Of a stretch of DNA of 64,000 nt, positions 45,250 to 61,326 are shown piece after piece. The first letter of the stretch is position 1, and each line of letters begins with the position of its first letter. The notes below the pieces were generated by a model. The model had not been told where the DNA came from, ran no database searches, and saw nothing but the letters and a program-made list of their open reading frames with translations. Source of the stretch: an uncultured Acidobacteriota bacterium (GTDB taxonomy: Bacteria; Acidobacteriota; Vicinamibacteria; Vicinamibacterales; 2-12-FULL-66-21); the NCBI GenBank assembly GCA_963836665.1, contig CAWIKL010000001.1, positions 1,999,818 to 2,063,817 of the forward strand, written 5' to 3'. Both the position numbers and the translations under genes were made by a program.

Positions 45250-46860
45250 ATGTCGACTGGAAAGACCTCGGCCTTTTACATCGTCCTCACTGCCGTCGCC
45301 GGGATGGCGGTCGGCATGGTCATCACCTCGCGACTGGACCTGACGCCGGCGTCGTCGGCGCAGACGATCGCGGTGCCGGCGGTCAACAGCGCGCCGCTGA
45401 CCGGGGCGATCGACGCGACGACCTTCCGCAACATCGCCAAGGGAAATGCGCCGGCCGTGGTCAACATCCAGACCGAGGTGCGGCAGCGCAGCCGCGATCT
45501 GACGGAGTACTTCGGCAACGGCGGCGACGATCTGCTGCGCCGCTTCTTCGGCGGCGACGACCAGGGCAACCAGGCGCCGCCGCGCCGCAACCGCGGCGGC
45601 GGCCAGGGGCAGGGGCAAGGACAGGGACAGGGGCGCGCGCAGCAGCCGGACCCGGTCCTCGAAGGGGCCGGCACCGGCTTCATCATCGACAAAGCGGGCT
45701 TCATCCTGACGAACAATCACGTCATCGAAGGGGCCGAGACCATCCGCGTCAGCCTCTATGGCGCCGAGCGGCTGGAGTCGTACGCCGCGAAGGTGGTCGG
45801 CCATGACACGCTGACCGACAGCGCGCTCATCCAGCTCACCGAGATGCCGCCGCAGCCGCTGTCAGAAGTGAAGCTGGGGGATTCGGACCAGATGCAGCCG
45901 GGCGACTGGGTCATGGCGATCGGCAACCCGTTCCGCCTCGGGCACAGTGTCAGCGTCGGGGTGATCAGCGCGCTCGGCCGTCCGTTCGGGGGGGTCCCGG
46001 GCCGCGAGCAGAACATGCTGCAGACCGACGCGGCGATCAACCCGGGAAACTCCGGCGGCCCGCTGCTCAACGTGCGCGGGGAAGTCGTCGGGATGAACAC
46101 CGCGATTTACACCGACCAGCGCTCGGCCAACATCGGCATCGGCTTCGCGACGCCGATGAACACCATCCGCGACCTGCTGCCGCAGCTGCGCAACGGCAAG
46201 GTCATCCGCGGCGTGATCGGCGTCACCGTGTCGAAGGATCACCTCACGCCGGAAACGGCGAAGGCCTTTGGGCTGCCGAACACGAGTGGTGCGCTGATTG
46301 CCACCGTCAACCCGAAGGGACCGGCCGACAAGGCCGGCCTCGAACCTGGTGACGTCGTCATCGACTTCAACGGCAAGGCGGTGAAGGACAGCGACTCGCT
46401 GGTGGCGATGGTGGTAAACACCAAACCGGGAACGGCGGCGCCGCTGACGATCTATCGCAACAACCAGCGCAAGGCGCTGAGCGTGACGATCGACGAGCTC
46501 GATCTCGAAGCGGAACAGACGCGCGGCACGCGGCGCAACGACACGCCTGAACAGCCGCAGCCGCAGCCGACGGCGACCGACTTCGGCATGACGCTCGACT
46601 CGATCACTCCCGACGTGGCGCGCAAGCTCGATCTGCCGGGCAACACCGGCGGTGCCGTCGTGACCGACGTCGATCACAACAGCGCGGCCGACAAGGCGGG
46701 GGTGGCGGCGGGCGACGTGATCCTCGAGGTGAACCGGCACAAGGTGTCGAACAAGAGCCAGGTCACGCGCGAGCTGCAGAACGTGCCGCCCGGCCAGCCG
46801 GCGTTCCTCCTAGTCTGGCGCGACAGCACCAGCGTCTTCGTCACCATGACAAAGCACTGA
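45250..46860 (+). CDS. htrA: periplasmic serine endoprotease HtrA/DegP/DegQ family with two PDZ domains (536 aa)
   Basis: TM/signal anchor, catalytic TNNHV...D..., GNSGGPLLN, and two PDZ domains (GALIATVNPKGPADKAGLEPGDVV and GAVVTDVDHNSAADKAGVAAGDVI). Confidence 0.9.
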   Translation: MSTGKTSAFYIVLTAVAGMAVGMVITSRLDLTPASSAQTIAVPAVNSAPLTGAIDATTFRNIAKGNAPAVVNIQTEVRQRSRDLTEYFGNGGDDLLRRFFGGDDQGNQAPPRRNRGGGQGQGQGQGQGRAQQPDPVLEGAGTGFIIDKAGFILTNNHVIEGAETIRVSLYGAERLESYAAKVVGHDTLTDSALIQLTEMPPQPLSEVKLGDSDQMQPGDWVMAIGNPFRLGHSVSVGVISALGRPFGGVPGREQNMLQTDAAINPGNSGGPLLNVRGEVVGMNTAIYTDQRSANIGIGFATPMNTIRDLLPQLRNGKVIRGVIGVTVSKDHLTPETAKAFGLPNTSGALIATVNPKGPADKAGLEPGDVVIDFNGKAVKDSDSLVAMVVNTKPGTAAPLTIYRNNQRKALSVTIDELDLEAEQTRGTRRNDTPEQPQPQPTATDFGMTLDSITPDVARKLDLPGNTGGAVVTDVDHNSAADKAGVAAGDVILEVNRHKVSNKSQVTRELQNVPPGQPAFLLVWRDSTSVFVTMTKH

Positions 46861-46990
46861 GTGACAATCGCCGATTGCAGACTGAAGAATGATGGATTGA
46901 CGATTGGATTGACAATCGCCAATCCAATCGTCAATCGTCACTCTGCAGTCCGTGAATCTTCAATCTGCAATCGGCAATCGCCAATTACCA
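46861..46990. repeat. cluster of CAATC/GATTG heptamer-spaced repeats, including a perfect 17-bp-stem hairpin (46895-46911 / 46920-46936)
   Basis: Read directly. GATTG occurs at 46873, 46895, 46902 and 46907. CAATC occurs at 46865, 46913, 46920, 46925, 46932, 46961, 46968 and 46975, plus a partial AATC at 46955 and a variant CAATT at 46982. Spacing is mostly 7 nt. The cluster starts immediately after the htrA stop. Local GC is far below the window average. Confidence 0.8.
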
Positions 46991-47827
46991 GCTTCCGCCT
47001 GGGTCGGTCTCGCGATCATTGCGATCTCCGAGGCCGGCATGCTCGCTCGAATCGAGCCGTTCTGGTCCTGGCACACGCCGATCGCCTGGACTGGATTCAT
47101 CTATTTCGTCGACGGCGTGATCTGGCGGATTCGCGGCGAGTCGCCGATCCGCAACGATCGTGCCGAGATGGCGTTCATCGCGCTGGCGAGCATTCCGTTG
47201 TGGGTCGTCTTCGAGCTCTATAACAAGTACACGCTGCACAACTGGCACTACGTCGGCCTGCCCGACGTGCTGCTGTTACGAGACTTCGGCTACGCGTGGG
47301 CGTTCGCCACCATCTGGCCGGCCATCTTCGAGACGTCCGAGCTGGTCAGCTGCCTACGCGATCGCCGCGCGCCTCCGTTCCGCCGCACGGCACCGAGGCG
47401 GGTGCCGCTCGACGCCATCGGCTGGCTCAGCGTCGCGGCCGGCGCCGCCATGCTGGCGTGGCCGATCGTGCACCCGTCGCCGTGGCTCGCCGCGCCGGTC
47501 TGGCTCGGTTTCATCTTGCTGCTCGACCCCCTCAACGCGCACCTGGGCGCCGAGTCACTGCGTGGCGACGTCGCGGCAGGTCACTACGGCCGGCTGGTGA
47601 ACCTGTCCTGGGGCGGCCTGGCATGCGGCCTGCTCTGGGAGTGCTGGAATTACTGGGCCCACACCAAATGGGTCTACACGGTGCCGGTTCCGCCGCACAT
47701 CAAGCTCTTCGAAATGCCCCTTGCCGGCTACCTCGGCTTTCCCGCCTTTGCTGTCGAATGCTTCGTCATGTACGTTTTCGTGCGCGAGTGGCTGTGGCGT
47801 GGAGCCTCGCGGCCGATCGCACTATAA
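46952..47827 (+). CDS. hypothetical polytopic membrane protein (about 291 aa; start uncertain)
   Basis: Six to eight hydrophobic segments, Trp-rich. GC3 is lower than in the neighbours. The GTG at 46952 lies inside the repeat cluster; an ATG at 47038 is an alternative start. Confidence 0.55.
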   Translation: MNLQSAIGNRQLPASAWVGLAIIAISEAGMLARIEPFWSWHTPIAWTGFIYFVDGVIWRIRGESPIRNDRAEMAFIALASIPLWVVFELYNKYTLHNWHYVGLPDVLLLRDFGYAWAFATIWPAIFETSELVSCLRDRRAPPFRRTAPRRVPLDAIGWLSVAAGAAMLAWPIVHPSPWLAAPVWLGFILLLDPLNAHLGAESLRGDVAAGHYGRLVNLSWGGLACGLLWECWNYWAHTKWVYTVPVPPHIKLFEMPLAGYLGFPAFAVECFVMYVFVREWLWRGASRPIAL

Positions 47828-50427: not shown

Positions 50428-50519
50428 TTGAATCCCTAATCGTTTGATCGCTGATCCTGGATCGCTCATCGCGAATCCCGCATCGCGAATCCCCGTCTCG
50501 GGAATCCGCATCCTGAATC
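50428..50519. repeat. about 13 tandem degenerate heptamers (consensus SNNNATC: gctGATC, gctCATC, gcgAATC, ccgCATC ...)
   Basis: The terminal C of each ATC motif is at 50434, 50441, 50449, 50456, 50463, 50470, 50477, 50484, 50491, (50498), 50506, 50512 and 50519, that is, 7-nt periodicity. The array starts right after the TAG stop at 50425-50427. Confidence 0.8.
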
Positions 50520-52696: not shown

Positions 52697-54117
52697 TGAA
52701 AATCGGCTTCATCTCCCTCGGCTGCCCGAAGAACCTCGTCGACGGCGAGGTGATGCTGGGTATGGCGCAGCAGGCCGGTCACGAGATCACGCCCGAGGCG
52801 CGGGACGCCGACGTCCTGGTGGTCAACACCTGCGCCTTCATCGACAACGCCAAGCAGGAGTCGATCGACGCCATCCTCGAGATGGCGCAGTACAAGCGTG
52901 CGGGCACGGCCTCGCGCCTCGTCGTCACCGGCTGCCTGGCCGAACGCTACCGCGATGAATTGCGCCGGGAGATCCCGGAGATCGACGCGTTGCTCGGGAC
53001 CGGCGAACTGCCGGGCATCGTCGAGGCGCTGGATGGGATGGGCGAGGGGCGAACGGCGAGGGGCGATGGGTCGACGAACGCGAACGCCCAGGTTCGGCCT
53101 CTCACCTTTCACAAGAAGTCCCTCGCGCCTCGCCCCTCGCCCCTCGCCTCCCGCGCGCAACCACCGACGTATCTCTACGACGCTTCGACGCCGCGTCTCC
53201 TGACGACCCCGCGGCACTTCGCCTACGTCAAGGTCGCTGAAGGCTGCGACTACACCTGCGCCTTCTGCATCATCCCGACGCTGCGCGGCGCGTACCGCAG
53301 CCGCGCCCACGACTCGGTGATTGCCGAGGCACGGGCGCTGGCGGCGCGCGGCGTCAAAGAATTGCTGCTGATCTCGCAGGACACGACCTTCTACGGCATC
53401 GATCGACAGGAGCGCGGCGCGCTGGCGAAGCTGCTGCGCGAGCTCAACACCGTCGACGGCCTCGAATGGATCCGCCTGCTCTATCTCTACCCGACGACGA
53501 TCACCGACGACGTCCTCGACGCGATGGCCGAGTGCGAGAAGGTCTGCCGCTACGTCGACCTGCCGCTGCAGCACGCCTCGGCCGAGGTGCTCAAGCGGAT
53601 GCGGCGGCCCGGCAATCGGCGGACCTACGACGCGCTGCTGGCGCGGATCCGCGCGCGCGTCCCTGGCGTCACTCTGAGGACGACCTTCATCGTCGGCTTC
53701 CCGGGCGAGACCGAGGCCGAGTTCGCCGAACTCGAGGCATTCGTCGCGGACACGCGGTTCGACCACATCGGTGTCTTCACCTACTCGCACGAGGAAGGCA
53801 CCCGCGCCCACGCCGCCGCCGACGACGTGCCGGCGGTGACCAAGCGCAAACGCCGCGACGCGATCATGAAGCGGCAGCAGCGCATCGTTGCGACCCGCCA
53901 GCAGGCGATGCTCGGCTCGGAGGTCTGCGTACTCATCGACGGTCCGTCGCCGGAGCACGAACTGGTGATCCACGGACGCCTCGAAGGCCAGGCGCCCGAC
54001 ATCGATCCGCTCGTCTATCTGACTGACAGCGATCCGTCGGCTTACGAGGGTGGTCAGCTCATCCGTGCGCGCGTGGTCGGCGCGCAGGGCTACGATCTGC
54101 TGGTGTCTCCTGTTTGA
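52696..54117 (+). CDS. rimO: ribosomal protein S12 methylthiotransferase RimO (473 aa, with an insert of about 40 aa)
   Basis: MKIGFISLGCPKNLVDGEVMLG (MTTase N-domain), radical-SAM CDYTCAFCIIP, and a TRAM domain at the C-terminus. The ATG overlaps the asnS stop by 1 nt (TGATG). Confidence 0.9.
53035..53155. repeat. inverted heptamer-repeat element inside rimO: (GGCGAGG-like)x4 at 53041-53068 and (CCTCGCC)x4 at 53121-53148
   Basis: Read directly. GGCGAGGGGCGA (53041-52 and 53055-66) is the exact reverse complement of TCGCCCCTCGCC (53130-41 and 53137-48). Confidence 0.8.
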
Positions 54118-60313: not shown

Positions 60314-61326
60314 TGACGGCGCCAGGAGTTGTGGCGTTGGGCATTGACGCGGCGCGCGGCATGGCCGGCGCCTTACTGATCGACAAGCCATCGGGACCGA
60401 CGTCTCACGACGTGGTCGCCGTGCTCAGACGGACGCTCAAGACGCCGCGCGTCGGGCACACCGGCACGCTCGATCCGCTGGCGACGGGGCTGCTCGTCAT
60501 GCTGATCGGCGGGGCGACGCGCCTGGCGCAGTTCCTCGCCACCGACGAGAAGGAATACGTCGCCGACATCCGACTCGGCCTCGCGACGCCGACCTACGAC
60601 GCGGCGTCGCTGGCGGAGGGTGTCCGATCGCCAATGGACGATGGGCGATGGGCGATGGACGCGGATCTCGAATCGGTTCTCGACCGCTTTCGCGGCAGCT
60701 TTCTGCAGACCCCTCCCCAGTTCTCGGCGAAGAAGATCGGGGGAGTCGCGGCATATGAAAAGGCGCGAAGACACGAAACCGTCGACCTGAAGCCGACCCT
60801 TGTCACCGTCCGGGAGCTTGAAGTTCTCGGCCCATCGCCCACCGCCCATCGCTCATCGCGCATCGAACGGCGAGACGACACGCTCGTTCGTCTGAGGGTC
60901 GCGGCGAGCGCGGGGTTTTACGTCCGCTCTCTCGCGCACGACCTCGGTCAGGCGTTGGGCTGTGGCGCGCACCTTGAGGCGCTCCGCCGGATGCGTGTGG
61001 GTCGGTTCCGCGTCGAGGACGCGTTGACGCTGGATCGACTCGACGCGGCGAGCCCCGGACGCTTTATCGCGGCCGCCAGCCTGCTTGGGGACATGCCCGC
61101 AGTCACCTTGACCGAGCCCGGCGTTCAACGGGCAAGCCACGGAAACACCCTCGCCCCTGCCCACGCGAAACGAGAGGACAGCCCCCTCTTTCGCGTCCCG
61201 GAAACGGACAACAACGGGGGCGCGGTTGCCGTATTTGTGCGACTGCTCGAGGCGGACGGAACGCTGCTCGCGGTGGCGGAAGCGCGTGGAGACGGGCTTT
61301 TGCATCCTATCGTCGTCTTAAGGTAA
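60310..61326 (+). CDS. truB: tRNA pseudouridine(55) synthase TruB (338 aa; start 60310/60313, or 60361)
   Basis: LLIDKPSGPTSHDVV, HTGTLDPLATGLL (catalytic Asp), FLQTPPQFSAKKIGG and GFYVRSLAHDLG. Overlaps the nrnA stop. Confidence 0.9.
   Translation: MMTAPGVVALGIDAARGMAGALLIDKPSGPTSHDVVAVLRRTLKTPRVGHTGTLDPLATGLLVMLIGGATRLAQFLATDEKEYVADIRLGLATPTYDAASLAEGVRSPMDDGRWAMDADLESVLDRFRGSFLQTPPQFSAKKIGGVAAYEKARRHETVDLKPTLVTVRELEVLGPSPTAHRSSRIERRDDTLVRLRVAASAGFYVRSLAHDLGQALGCGAHLEALRRMRVGRFRVEDALTLDRLDAASPGRFIAAASLLGDMPAVTLTEPGVQRASHGNTLAPAHAKREDSPLFRVPETDNNGGAVAVFVRLLEADGTLLAVAEARGDGLLHPIVVLR
60625..60673. repeat. heptamer array (CGATGGG-like, 7 units) inside truB
   Basis: cgatcgc caatgga cgatggg cgatggg cgatgga cgcggat ctcgaat, read directly. 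Confidence 0.75.
60831..60865. repeat. heptamer array (CCCATCG-like, 5 units) inside truB, reverse complement of the 60625 array
   Basis: cccatcg cccaccg cccatcg ctcatcg cgcatcg, read directly. The units ctcatcg and cgcatcg also occur in the 50428 array. Confidence 0.75.

Follow-up and report, generated by a model that had tools for sequence, protein, structure and literature searches.

A palindromic heptamer-repeat element in the htrA operon spacer of an acidobacterial genome and its probable kinship with intervening-sequence-like gene cassettes

What does a dense, AT-rich patch of short repeated words between htrA and the following gene represent in a GC-rich acidobacterial genome: a signal belonging to the operon, a microsatellite that has grown in place, or one copy of something dispersed? 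Heptamer repeats in bacteria have been known for decades, cyanobacterial STRR sequences and the GGGAATC arrays of Xanthomonas amongst them. To our knowledge, neither their origin and function nor those of the 23S rRNA intervening sequences (IVS) and their S23p proteins have been established. The locus lies in a window of 64,000 nucleotides, the whole stretch of DNA that was analysed, on contig C1 of a Vicinamibacterales genome of 6.65 Mb in 5 contigs; positions given without a contig name are those of the window. The upstream gene encodes an HtrA/DegP-family serine protease with a Pfam Trypsin_2 domain and two PDZ domains, which scores 405 bits against the NCBIfam Do-family model TIGR02037, slightly below its cut-off of 416 bits. 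The downstream gene encodes a membrane protein for which no Pfam or NCBIfam family was found.

A first-pass annotation made from the letters alone had described four copies of GATTG and eight of CAATC, mostly seven nucleotides apart, along with a perfect 17-bp stem and a small palindrome, and all of these can be read in the sequence exactly so. The 12 exact pentamers in the 130 nt of 46861-46990 (GATTG at 46873, 46895, 46902 and 46907; CAATC at 46865, 46913, 46920, 46925, 46932, 46961, 46968 and 46975) compare with approximately 0.2 expected from the genome-wide density of 1.42 per kb. The island was also rightly called AT-rich, its G+C content being 46% vs 66% for the genome. The stem is formed by GATTGACGATTGGATTG (46895-46911) and its perfect reverse complement CAATCCAATCGTCAATC (46920-46936), separated by 8 nt, and the palindrome CAATCGcCGATTG, that is CAATCG-c-CGATTG, occupies 46865-46877; a period-7 array is reported by TRF at 46913-46985. 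The island is not an assembly artefact, since its sequence is the same in an ENA contig that was assembled independently.

Two points lay outside that annotation, namely the island-wide inverted symmetry and the link to four-helix-bundle gene cassettes discussed below. As 46870-46888 pairs with 46957-46975, the whole island is predicted to form one long imperfect hairpin of ~55 bp, which begins 10 nt past the htrA stop codon and reaches across the GTG of the downstream gene (Table 1). Both of its ends match, in convergent orientation, the head profile of a repeat family (nhmmer, E = 1.4e-7 and 4.5e-11). The head of the left arm is partly degenerate; this arm holds the family motif TGCAGACTG, and its irregular GATTGGATTG unit is also present in other copies. 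The motif CCGTGAaTC of the right arm recurs in the copies at C1:222433 and C1:1626544 and in the related locus L078. The predicted RNA fold has an energy of -61.3 kcal/mol (z = -7.6) on the plus strand and -80.3 kcal/mol (z = -11.9) on the minus strand, antisense being better than sense at this locus, and the first seven codons of the downstream gene have a predicted pairing probability of 0.87. Across the family, the sense fold is the better one for 8 of the 10 copies in this genome and for ~2 of 6 tandem copies in G023, a genome of a different genus. Neither strand being favoured throughout, the predicted folds do not clearly point to selection acting on the RNA.

Table 1. Features of the island, its flanking genes and further cassette loci. 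Positions refer to the window unless a contig is named.
Feature	Position	Strand	Remarks
htrA/degP-family serine protease gene, 536 aa	45250..46860	+	stop TGA 46858-46860
Whole palindromic element	46859..46988 (genome C1:2046676-2046805)	.	nhmmer head profile and predicted folds
Left (G) arm	46865..46911	+	CAATCGC, then GATTGCA GACTGAA GAATGAT GGATTGAC GATTG GATTG
Lower stem, 5' side	46870..46888	+	12 + 6 bp with 46957-46975, from the MFE helix list
Perfect 17-bp stem and loop	46895..46936	+	46895-46911 pairs with 46920-46936
Loop ACAATCGC, 8 nt	46912..46919	+	fold
Right (C) arm	46920..46988	+	terminates in the reverse-read family head (…CAATCTGCAATCGGCAATCGCCAAT); 44.5 bits
Segment of ~20 nt in the right arm only (GTCACTC TGCAGTC CGTGAA)	46937..46956	+	mostly unpaired in the predicted fold; contains the GTG start
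Downstream membrane-protein gene, 291 aa	46952..47827	+	right arm encodes the GTG start and ~11 first codons
Other PF05635 loci with their own convergent arrays	C1:3701049-3701691, C1:3755150-3755940, C2:1746700-1747130, C1:1806250-1806870, C1:3941445-3941661

The overlap with the start of the next gene, suspected from the beginning, is borne out by GTG 46952, which falls within the right arm. In the downstream protein the conserved N-terminal helix (AWVGLAIIAISEAGML) is intact and aligns with relatives, so that translation must start upstream of 46985, and this GTG is the sole canonical in-frame start upstream of the conserved N-terminus; no Shine-Dalgarno sequence precedes it. In one public gene call the gene is shortened to 262 aa. 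The lesson for annotation is that the start codon of a gene sits here in a repeat and that the htrA operon is split by an inserted hairpin.

For the ancestral state of the junction, the relatives considered included 19 metagenome matches to a conserved downstream 26-mer (72-83% identity). Most close relatives have no array, the membrane-protein gene following 0-40 nt after htrA, and in one of them (L005) its GTG start overlaps the TAG stop codon of htrA. In several loci (L002-L004, L076, L079-L092) ATG, GTG and TTG are all missing at the start region of the downstream gene, and a GGAG-type Shine-Dalgarno is followed after 7-10 nt by an in-frame CTG (GACTG), 15-40 nt after the htrA stop codon; this conserved GGAG-N7-10-CTG arrangement suggests that CTG may be the start codon of the downstream gene in these relatives. 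When the region downstream of htrA was compared as the first-pass annotation had proposed, related elements were found at the same site, although the island itself is absent from most close relatives: the metagenome contig L078 has a larger GATTG/CAATC element, with AGTCCGTGAATC and the right-hand head common to the island, and L001 has the G arm alone. In L078 an IS630-type transposase gene (526-1620; DDE_3 and HTH) adjoins the G arm, and its end is unlike the arm heads. Distant relatives show other heptamer units directly after the htrA stop codon, some of which bracket a canonical terminator. A separate motif, TACAATC-N2-6-GGCCGGYGGAC...GTCCRCCGGCC followed by a T-run, was seen downstream of htrA in many Vicinamibacterales MAGs (L015-L020, L025, L028, L033, L038 and L065); it has the look of a -10-like box placed immediately upstream of a conserved hairpin of terminator type, and it is absent from the genome studied here. 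As regards polymorphism in copy number, the only other contig with an identical HtrA has an identical island, and the 3' end of htrA, used as an exact query against metagenome contigs, gave no match. On this comparison of sequences, the element appears as a lineage-specific arrival in a formerly coupled junction and as the present source of the putative downstream start codon.

Other copies exist in plenty. A genome-wide search for 7-nt-periodic CAATC and GATTG found 24-27 loci, which leaves no room for a one-off low-complexity spacer, and same-orientation CAATC pairs number 106 at a distance of 7 nt; at 6 and 8 nt there are 10 and 22, and permuted pentamers reach 31 at most. Ten of the loci are compact hairpins of 130-234 nt, the htrA island being the shortest, and in all ten the G arm comes first. 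These doublets and ~12 solo arms share one head consensus. When arms are read from outside to inside (consensus cATTGGCGATTGCCGAcTGCAGATTGnnGATTGACGGATTGGCGATTG), 29 of 33 arms have the head TGCAGANTG no more than a few units from their outer end, and the order of units is a TGCAG-type outer head, then GATTGACGGATTG, then GATTGGC or GATTGCC toward the loop, the conserved part of the outer head being ATTGGCGATTGCCGAcTGCAGATTG..GATTGACGGATTG. Irregular units also recur between loci, among them a 5-nt GATTG|GATTG step, the 8-nt GATTGACG and GATTCACGGAcTG. Arms resemble those of other elements as closely as they resemble their own partners (61.7 vs 57.7 +/- 14), and they are therefore copies of one consensus rather than locally grown microsatellites. 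Concerted evolution or local template switching, considered as a means of keeping the two arms matched, was dropped since similarity within elements is no higher than between them. The arm heads lie within a few nt of stop codons. At C1:2712440-2713128 two solo arms flank an ExbD/TolR-like gene (identified by eye), each with a stop codon on one side and a canonical terminator hairpin on the other, which indicates that arms and ordinary terminators coexist in the same 3' regions.

The family has a narrow taxonomic range. GATTG arrays with the head are present in 10 of 10 same-genus genomes and in most genera of the taxonomic family; other families of the order have hardly any GATTGNN triplets or TGCAG heads, and controls with the patterns reversed give approximately zero. 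The architecture is the same in the 657-kb sample of G023. As to mobility, the inverted heads at both outer ends are a MITE feature, as terminal inverted repeats are. No match to a RAYT (Y1 transposase, PF01797) was obtained in this genome by a search that found matches in 6 control genomes, informal inspection of the flanks by eye revealed no consistent target-site duplication, and between head pairs 0.6-3 kb apart there is no transposase, an ExbD-like gene or a PF05635 gene being found instead.

The family is part of a wider phenomenon. At a TRF score of at least 50, the genome has 112 period-7 arrays vs 1, 4, 7 and 7 for periods 5, 10, 11 and 13; period-8 arrays are also enriched (48 vs 1-7 for the same four periods), which fits the 8-nt arms of two of the PF05635 cassettes described below. 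After merging, 12% of 211 arrays lie in coding-like frames vs 60% of random sites, an approximately five-fold depletion. Arrays are found at gene 3' ends twice as often as at 5' ends; 72 of them have the G-rich strand in sense, and these follow a stop codon at a median distance of 3 nt. Where two neighbouring arrays are opposite in skew, the order, over all unit types, is G-then-C in 14 cases and C-then-G in none. In the region of C1 with positive GC skew (0.6-1.8 Mb) the G-rich arrays are mostly on the plus strand (~43 vs 13), and elsewhere the bias is weaker or reversed; as the strand bias follows GC skew, array orientation tracks replication or gene direction.

It had been proposed that the island and the arrays at 50428, 53041 and 60625 of the window form one dispersed family with a common heptamer logic. 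A dispersed family does exist, but these three arrays are instances of that broad phenomenon with units from other families; the island too is heptameric, but what it represents is a structured palindrome whose units follow an ordered consensus and which is tied to four-helix-bundle cassettes. At 50428-50519 the spacer after an APH-family kinase gene consists of ~13 degenerate heptamers in one orientation (GAATCCC/GCATCGC type), beginning 1 nt past the stop codon. At 53040-53148 convergent GGGCGAG/CCCTCGC arrays lie in frame inside the linker of rimO, and at 60634-60865 convergent ATGGGCG/GCCCATC arrays lie in frame in two truB loops; the frame stays open in both genes. Hybrid arrays were also seen: of those at C1:1699763-1699920 and C1:956254-956404, one type has a TGCAG head, (GATGGGC)n and then (GATTGGC)n, and the other has (ATGGGCG)x11.7 opposite a CAATC arm. 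The GGGCGAT and GATTG families are one base per unit apart and grade into one another. The GGGCGAT family elsewhere in the genome fits G3N4; the GATTGNN unit has no G-tract, and no quadruplex is possible for it.

The family is tied to gene-bearing elements at C5:165213-165951, where a G arm and a C arm, with heads among the best-scoring of the family, enclose an ORF of 137 aa. Its product has a match (E = 4.7e-11) to PF05635, the Pfam family of the protein encoded in 23S rRNA intervening sequences. Each of the six PF05635 genes in the genome is flanked by a convergent pair of arrays with a period of 7 or 8 nt and a unit of its own, these units being GGGCGAT, GGGTTCTC, GAGGGGC, AATCGGGN, GATTGNN and AGAAGGT; the period is 8 nt in the GGGTTCTC and AATCGGGN pairs, and of the gene at C1:3941503 only a remnant of 31 positions is left, with AGAAGGT and CTTCTAC arrays on its two sides. 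Of 25 genomes of the taxonomic family, 24 have PF05635 genes. In G023 (C2:78790-79695) a GATTG-armed cassette with the same head encodes a PF05635 protein ~57% identical to that on C5, and coordinates indicate the same layout in G024 and G012. Some other widely spaced convergent pairs enclose ordinary small genes (a metallophosphoesterase-like gene and a membrane-protein gene, by eye), so that not every split pair is a cassette.

As full-length relatives carry a PF05635 gene in the loop, the element can be regarded as an IVS-like cassette, of which the island is the empty, MITE- or REPIN-like form. The island contains no ORF in its 8-nt loop, and a profile built from five PF05635 proteins of this genome found no gene-bearing element at the htrA site in any of 94 related loci; an emptied cassette and arms that were copied on their own cannot be told apart at this island. 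We consider it probable that the island is a gene-less, IVS-like or REPIN-like palindromic element in an operon spacer and that its family is specific to one taxonomic family of Vicinamibacterales.

Other readings have to be weighed against this one, and the most obvious of them concern the operon itself. The hairpin might be a dedicated regulator of the htrA operon under selection, which would stabilise the htrA mRNA, stall terminating ribosomes or gate downstream translation. A stem that starts so close to the stop codon and is predicted to pair with the first codons of the next gene would suit such a role, as would the placement of all ten compact copies in this genome between co-directional genes and the related element that L078 has upstream of the same downstream gene. 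There is also a precedent in the E. coli REP hairpins near stop codons; Liang, Rudd and Deutscher are said to have reported in 2015 that those within 15 nt of a stop codon cut the output of the upstream gene. In most close relatives, however, the element is missing and the two genes abut, family copies adjoin unrelated genes, in G023 they also lie between convergent genes, and at the htrA locus the sense-strand fold is the weaker one; we therefore regard selection for such a role as improbable and read the island as a repeat element within the operon, not as a dedicated htrA signal. That it is a factor-independent terminator for htrA is very improbable. A strong hairpin is indeed predicted directly behind the htrA stop codon, and in many distant relatives this position is taken by a canonical terminator, sometimes between heptamer arrays; but, as had been remarked at the outset, the stem with G-C pairs at just 7 of 17 positions and no U-tract 3' of it on the plus strand is not a typical terminator, the downstream gene begins within the element without a recognisable promoter of its own, and the two genes are coupled in close relatives. 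A promoter and terminator scan gave one weak promoter-like site, and terminator-like calls on the minus strand only, where there is no gene; an Rfam 15 scan of 46600-47200 returned only generic miRNA-model hairpin matches, far under the gathering scores.

The island could also be a mere microsatellite, grown by slippage from a heptameric seed behind htrA, its inverted half having come from template switching, with no relation to cassettes and no function. Many unrelated period-7 units litter this genome and those of relatives, often right from the stop codon, some relatives have unit-like seeds at the very site (TGA-GATTGGCG in L094, CCAATCGCC in L081), and a heptamer excess in large high-GC genomes has been ascribed to polymerase slippage (Mrazek et al. 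2007, as cited in PMC4692102). We nevertheless hold this to be unlikely: more than 20 loci and other genera share the order of unit variants as well as the irregular units (GATTGGATTG, GATTGACGGATTG, the TGCAG head), partner arms are no closer to each other than to arms elsewhere, and the same arms surround a conserved gene in four genera. Less probable than either this or an operon regulator is a role at the level of DNA, as sites for a protein that recognises GATTG at 7-bp intervals, as a cruciform, or as a pause site for replication or transcription. The GATTG core is kept across genera with variable 2-nt spacers, polarity is strict, with the G-rich strand in sense after stop codons, and the RNA fold favours neither strand consistently, all of which would be in keeping with such a role; yet no candidate binding protein was identified, a spacing of 7 bp puts successive sites on different faces of the helix, and the known relatives, the IVS elements, function as RNA stems.

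Returning to the preferred reading of a gene-less palindromic element, its closest known counterparts are of four kinds. The repeats described by Rehm et al. (2015; PMC4692102) in Xanthomonas (GGGAATC) and Nostoc (GGGGAYT) include convergent heptamer pairs, which in Xanthomonas lie no more than 50 bp from a stop codon and for the most part are transcribed. They resemble the present arrays in being dispersed 7-nt tandem units, depleted in coding sequence, a few nt from stop codons with the G-rich strand in sense, frequently forming convergent inverted pairs capable of a stem-loop, and in shifting in length and sequence between relatives. They differ in that the GATTGNN units of the island have no GGG run and that ordered unit variants, a defined head and a gene in full-length copies are found here, in the phylum Acidobacteriota. 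The long heptanucleotide SSRs of large high-GC genomes may be counted alongside as a close system, as far as the citation of Mrazek et al. (2007) in PMC4692102 describes them. Cyanobacterial STRR sequences, for which Rehm et al. cite Calothrix, are likewise intergenic tandem heptamers that form a genome-wide family, and the comparison that the first-pass annotation had drawn with them was fair. Their unit sequences and phylum are different. We know of no description of STRR arrays with an ordered head or as the arms of a gene cassette.

The ORF-bearing 23S rRNA IVS of Coxiella burnetii and Leptospira (S23p/PF05635) share inverted termini, a long stem (here predicted), a loop with a PF05635 ORF (here at C5 and in other genera), tandem heptamers of variable number, and an RNA stem that can outlast a decaying ORF. 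In C. burnetii the IVS has inverted termini with a 28-bp stem that is cleaved by RNase III, a decaying S23p ORF and GACAGAT tandem heptamers, the number of which varies between strains (Warrier et al. 2016; PMC4990558). In contrast, the island lies outside rRNA, between two protein-coding genes, and has no ORF; the arms here are long heptamer arrays whereas that stem is 28 bp of unique sequence, and cutting by RNase III is presumed here. The REP and REPIN sequences of Proteobacteria (Bertels and Rainey 2011; PMC3116915, PMC3337134) are, like the present family, extragenic, present in tens of copies per genome and inherited within lineages, and together with ERIC- and MITE-type repeats they occur as singlets and as inverted hairpin doublets in transcribed spacers near stop codons. 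Unlike REPs and REPINs, the GATTG elements have an internal period of 7 nt and arms of variable length, and no RAYT, target-site duplication or matching IS was found for them.

A course of events may be proposed. Two convergent arms would form a long hairpin, which would have been inserted into a very short, translationally coupled junction between htrA and the membrane-protein gene; the ancestral start codon would thereby have been displaced, a GTG within the right arm taking over. The element is probably transcribed as part of the htrA operon mRNA, where a stem of ~55 bp might bury the downstream initiation region. By analogy with the rRNA IVS, RNase III, the gene for which is present in the genome, probably cuts the stem, and such a cut would uncouple the two cistrons and lower or delay downstream expression. 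The number of units probably drifts through replication slippage.

A bolder extension can be formulated, in which the heptamer hairpins would be the non-autonomous form of an unrecognised mobile cassette with PF05635 as its sole gene. The protein would build or copy the arrays, perhaps with a host polymerase or reverse transcriptase, and would place elements at stop codons, and the rRNA IVS, the Xanthomonas and cyanobacterial repeats and the acidobacterial hairpins would be one class of element. We regard the PF05635 four-helix-bundle protein as related to the IVS proteins of rRNA and to Avd, an accessory protein in diversity-generating retroelements. We know of no mobility function for PF05635 proteins, and the sole reverse transcriptase gene of this genome (C2:551874-552497) adjoins no PF05635 gene. 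The extension is speculative and in our estimate rather unlikely; were it true, these three groups of sequences would be faces of a single class.

The first-pass annotation knew of no description of such repeats in this kind of genome. No paper on Acidobacteria was found, which agrees with that view, but the kind is known from Xanthomonas and Nostoc (PMC4692102) and from the heptamers of the S23p-bearing IVS of Coxiella (PMC4990558): heptamer repeats, IVS elements and REPIN-like hairpins are all established categories. What sets the present elements apart are AT-rich units that cannot form quadruplexes, with an ordered head, located outside rRNA and occurring in gene-less and gene-bearing forms in Acidobacteriota, a variant that we did not find described in the literature searched.

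Taken by itself, the htrA island is an unremarkable copy; the interest lies in the family link. In this genome heptamer repeats are tied to IVS and S23p sequences, all four-helix-bundle genes lying between convergent 7- or 8-nt arrays, and within the GATTG family, arms with one and the same order of units occur in several genera, in some copies around a gene and in many without one. A hypothesis is thereby made testable, namely that heptamer hairpins may derive from IVS-like cassettes and may be substrates of RNase III in mRNAs.
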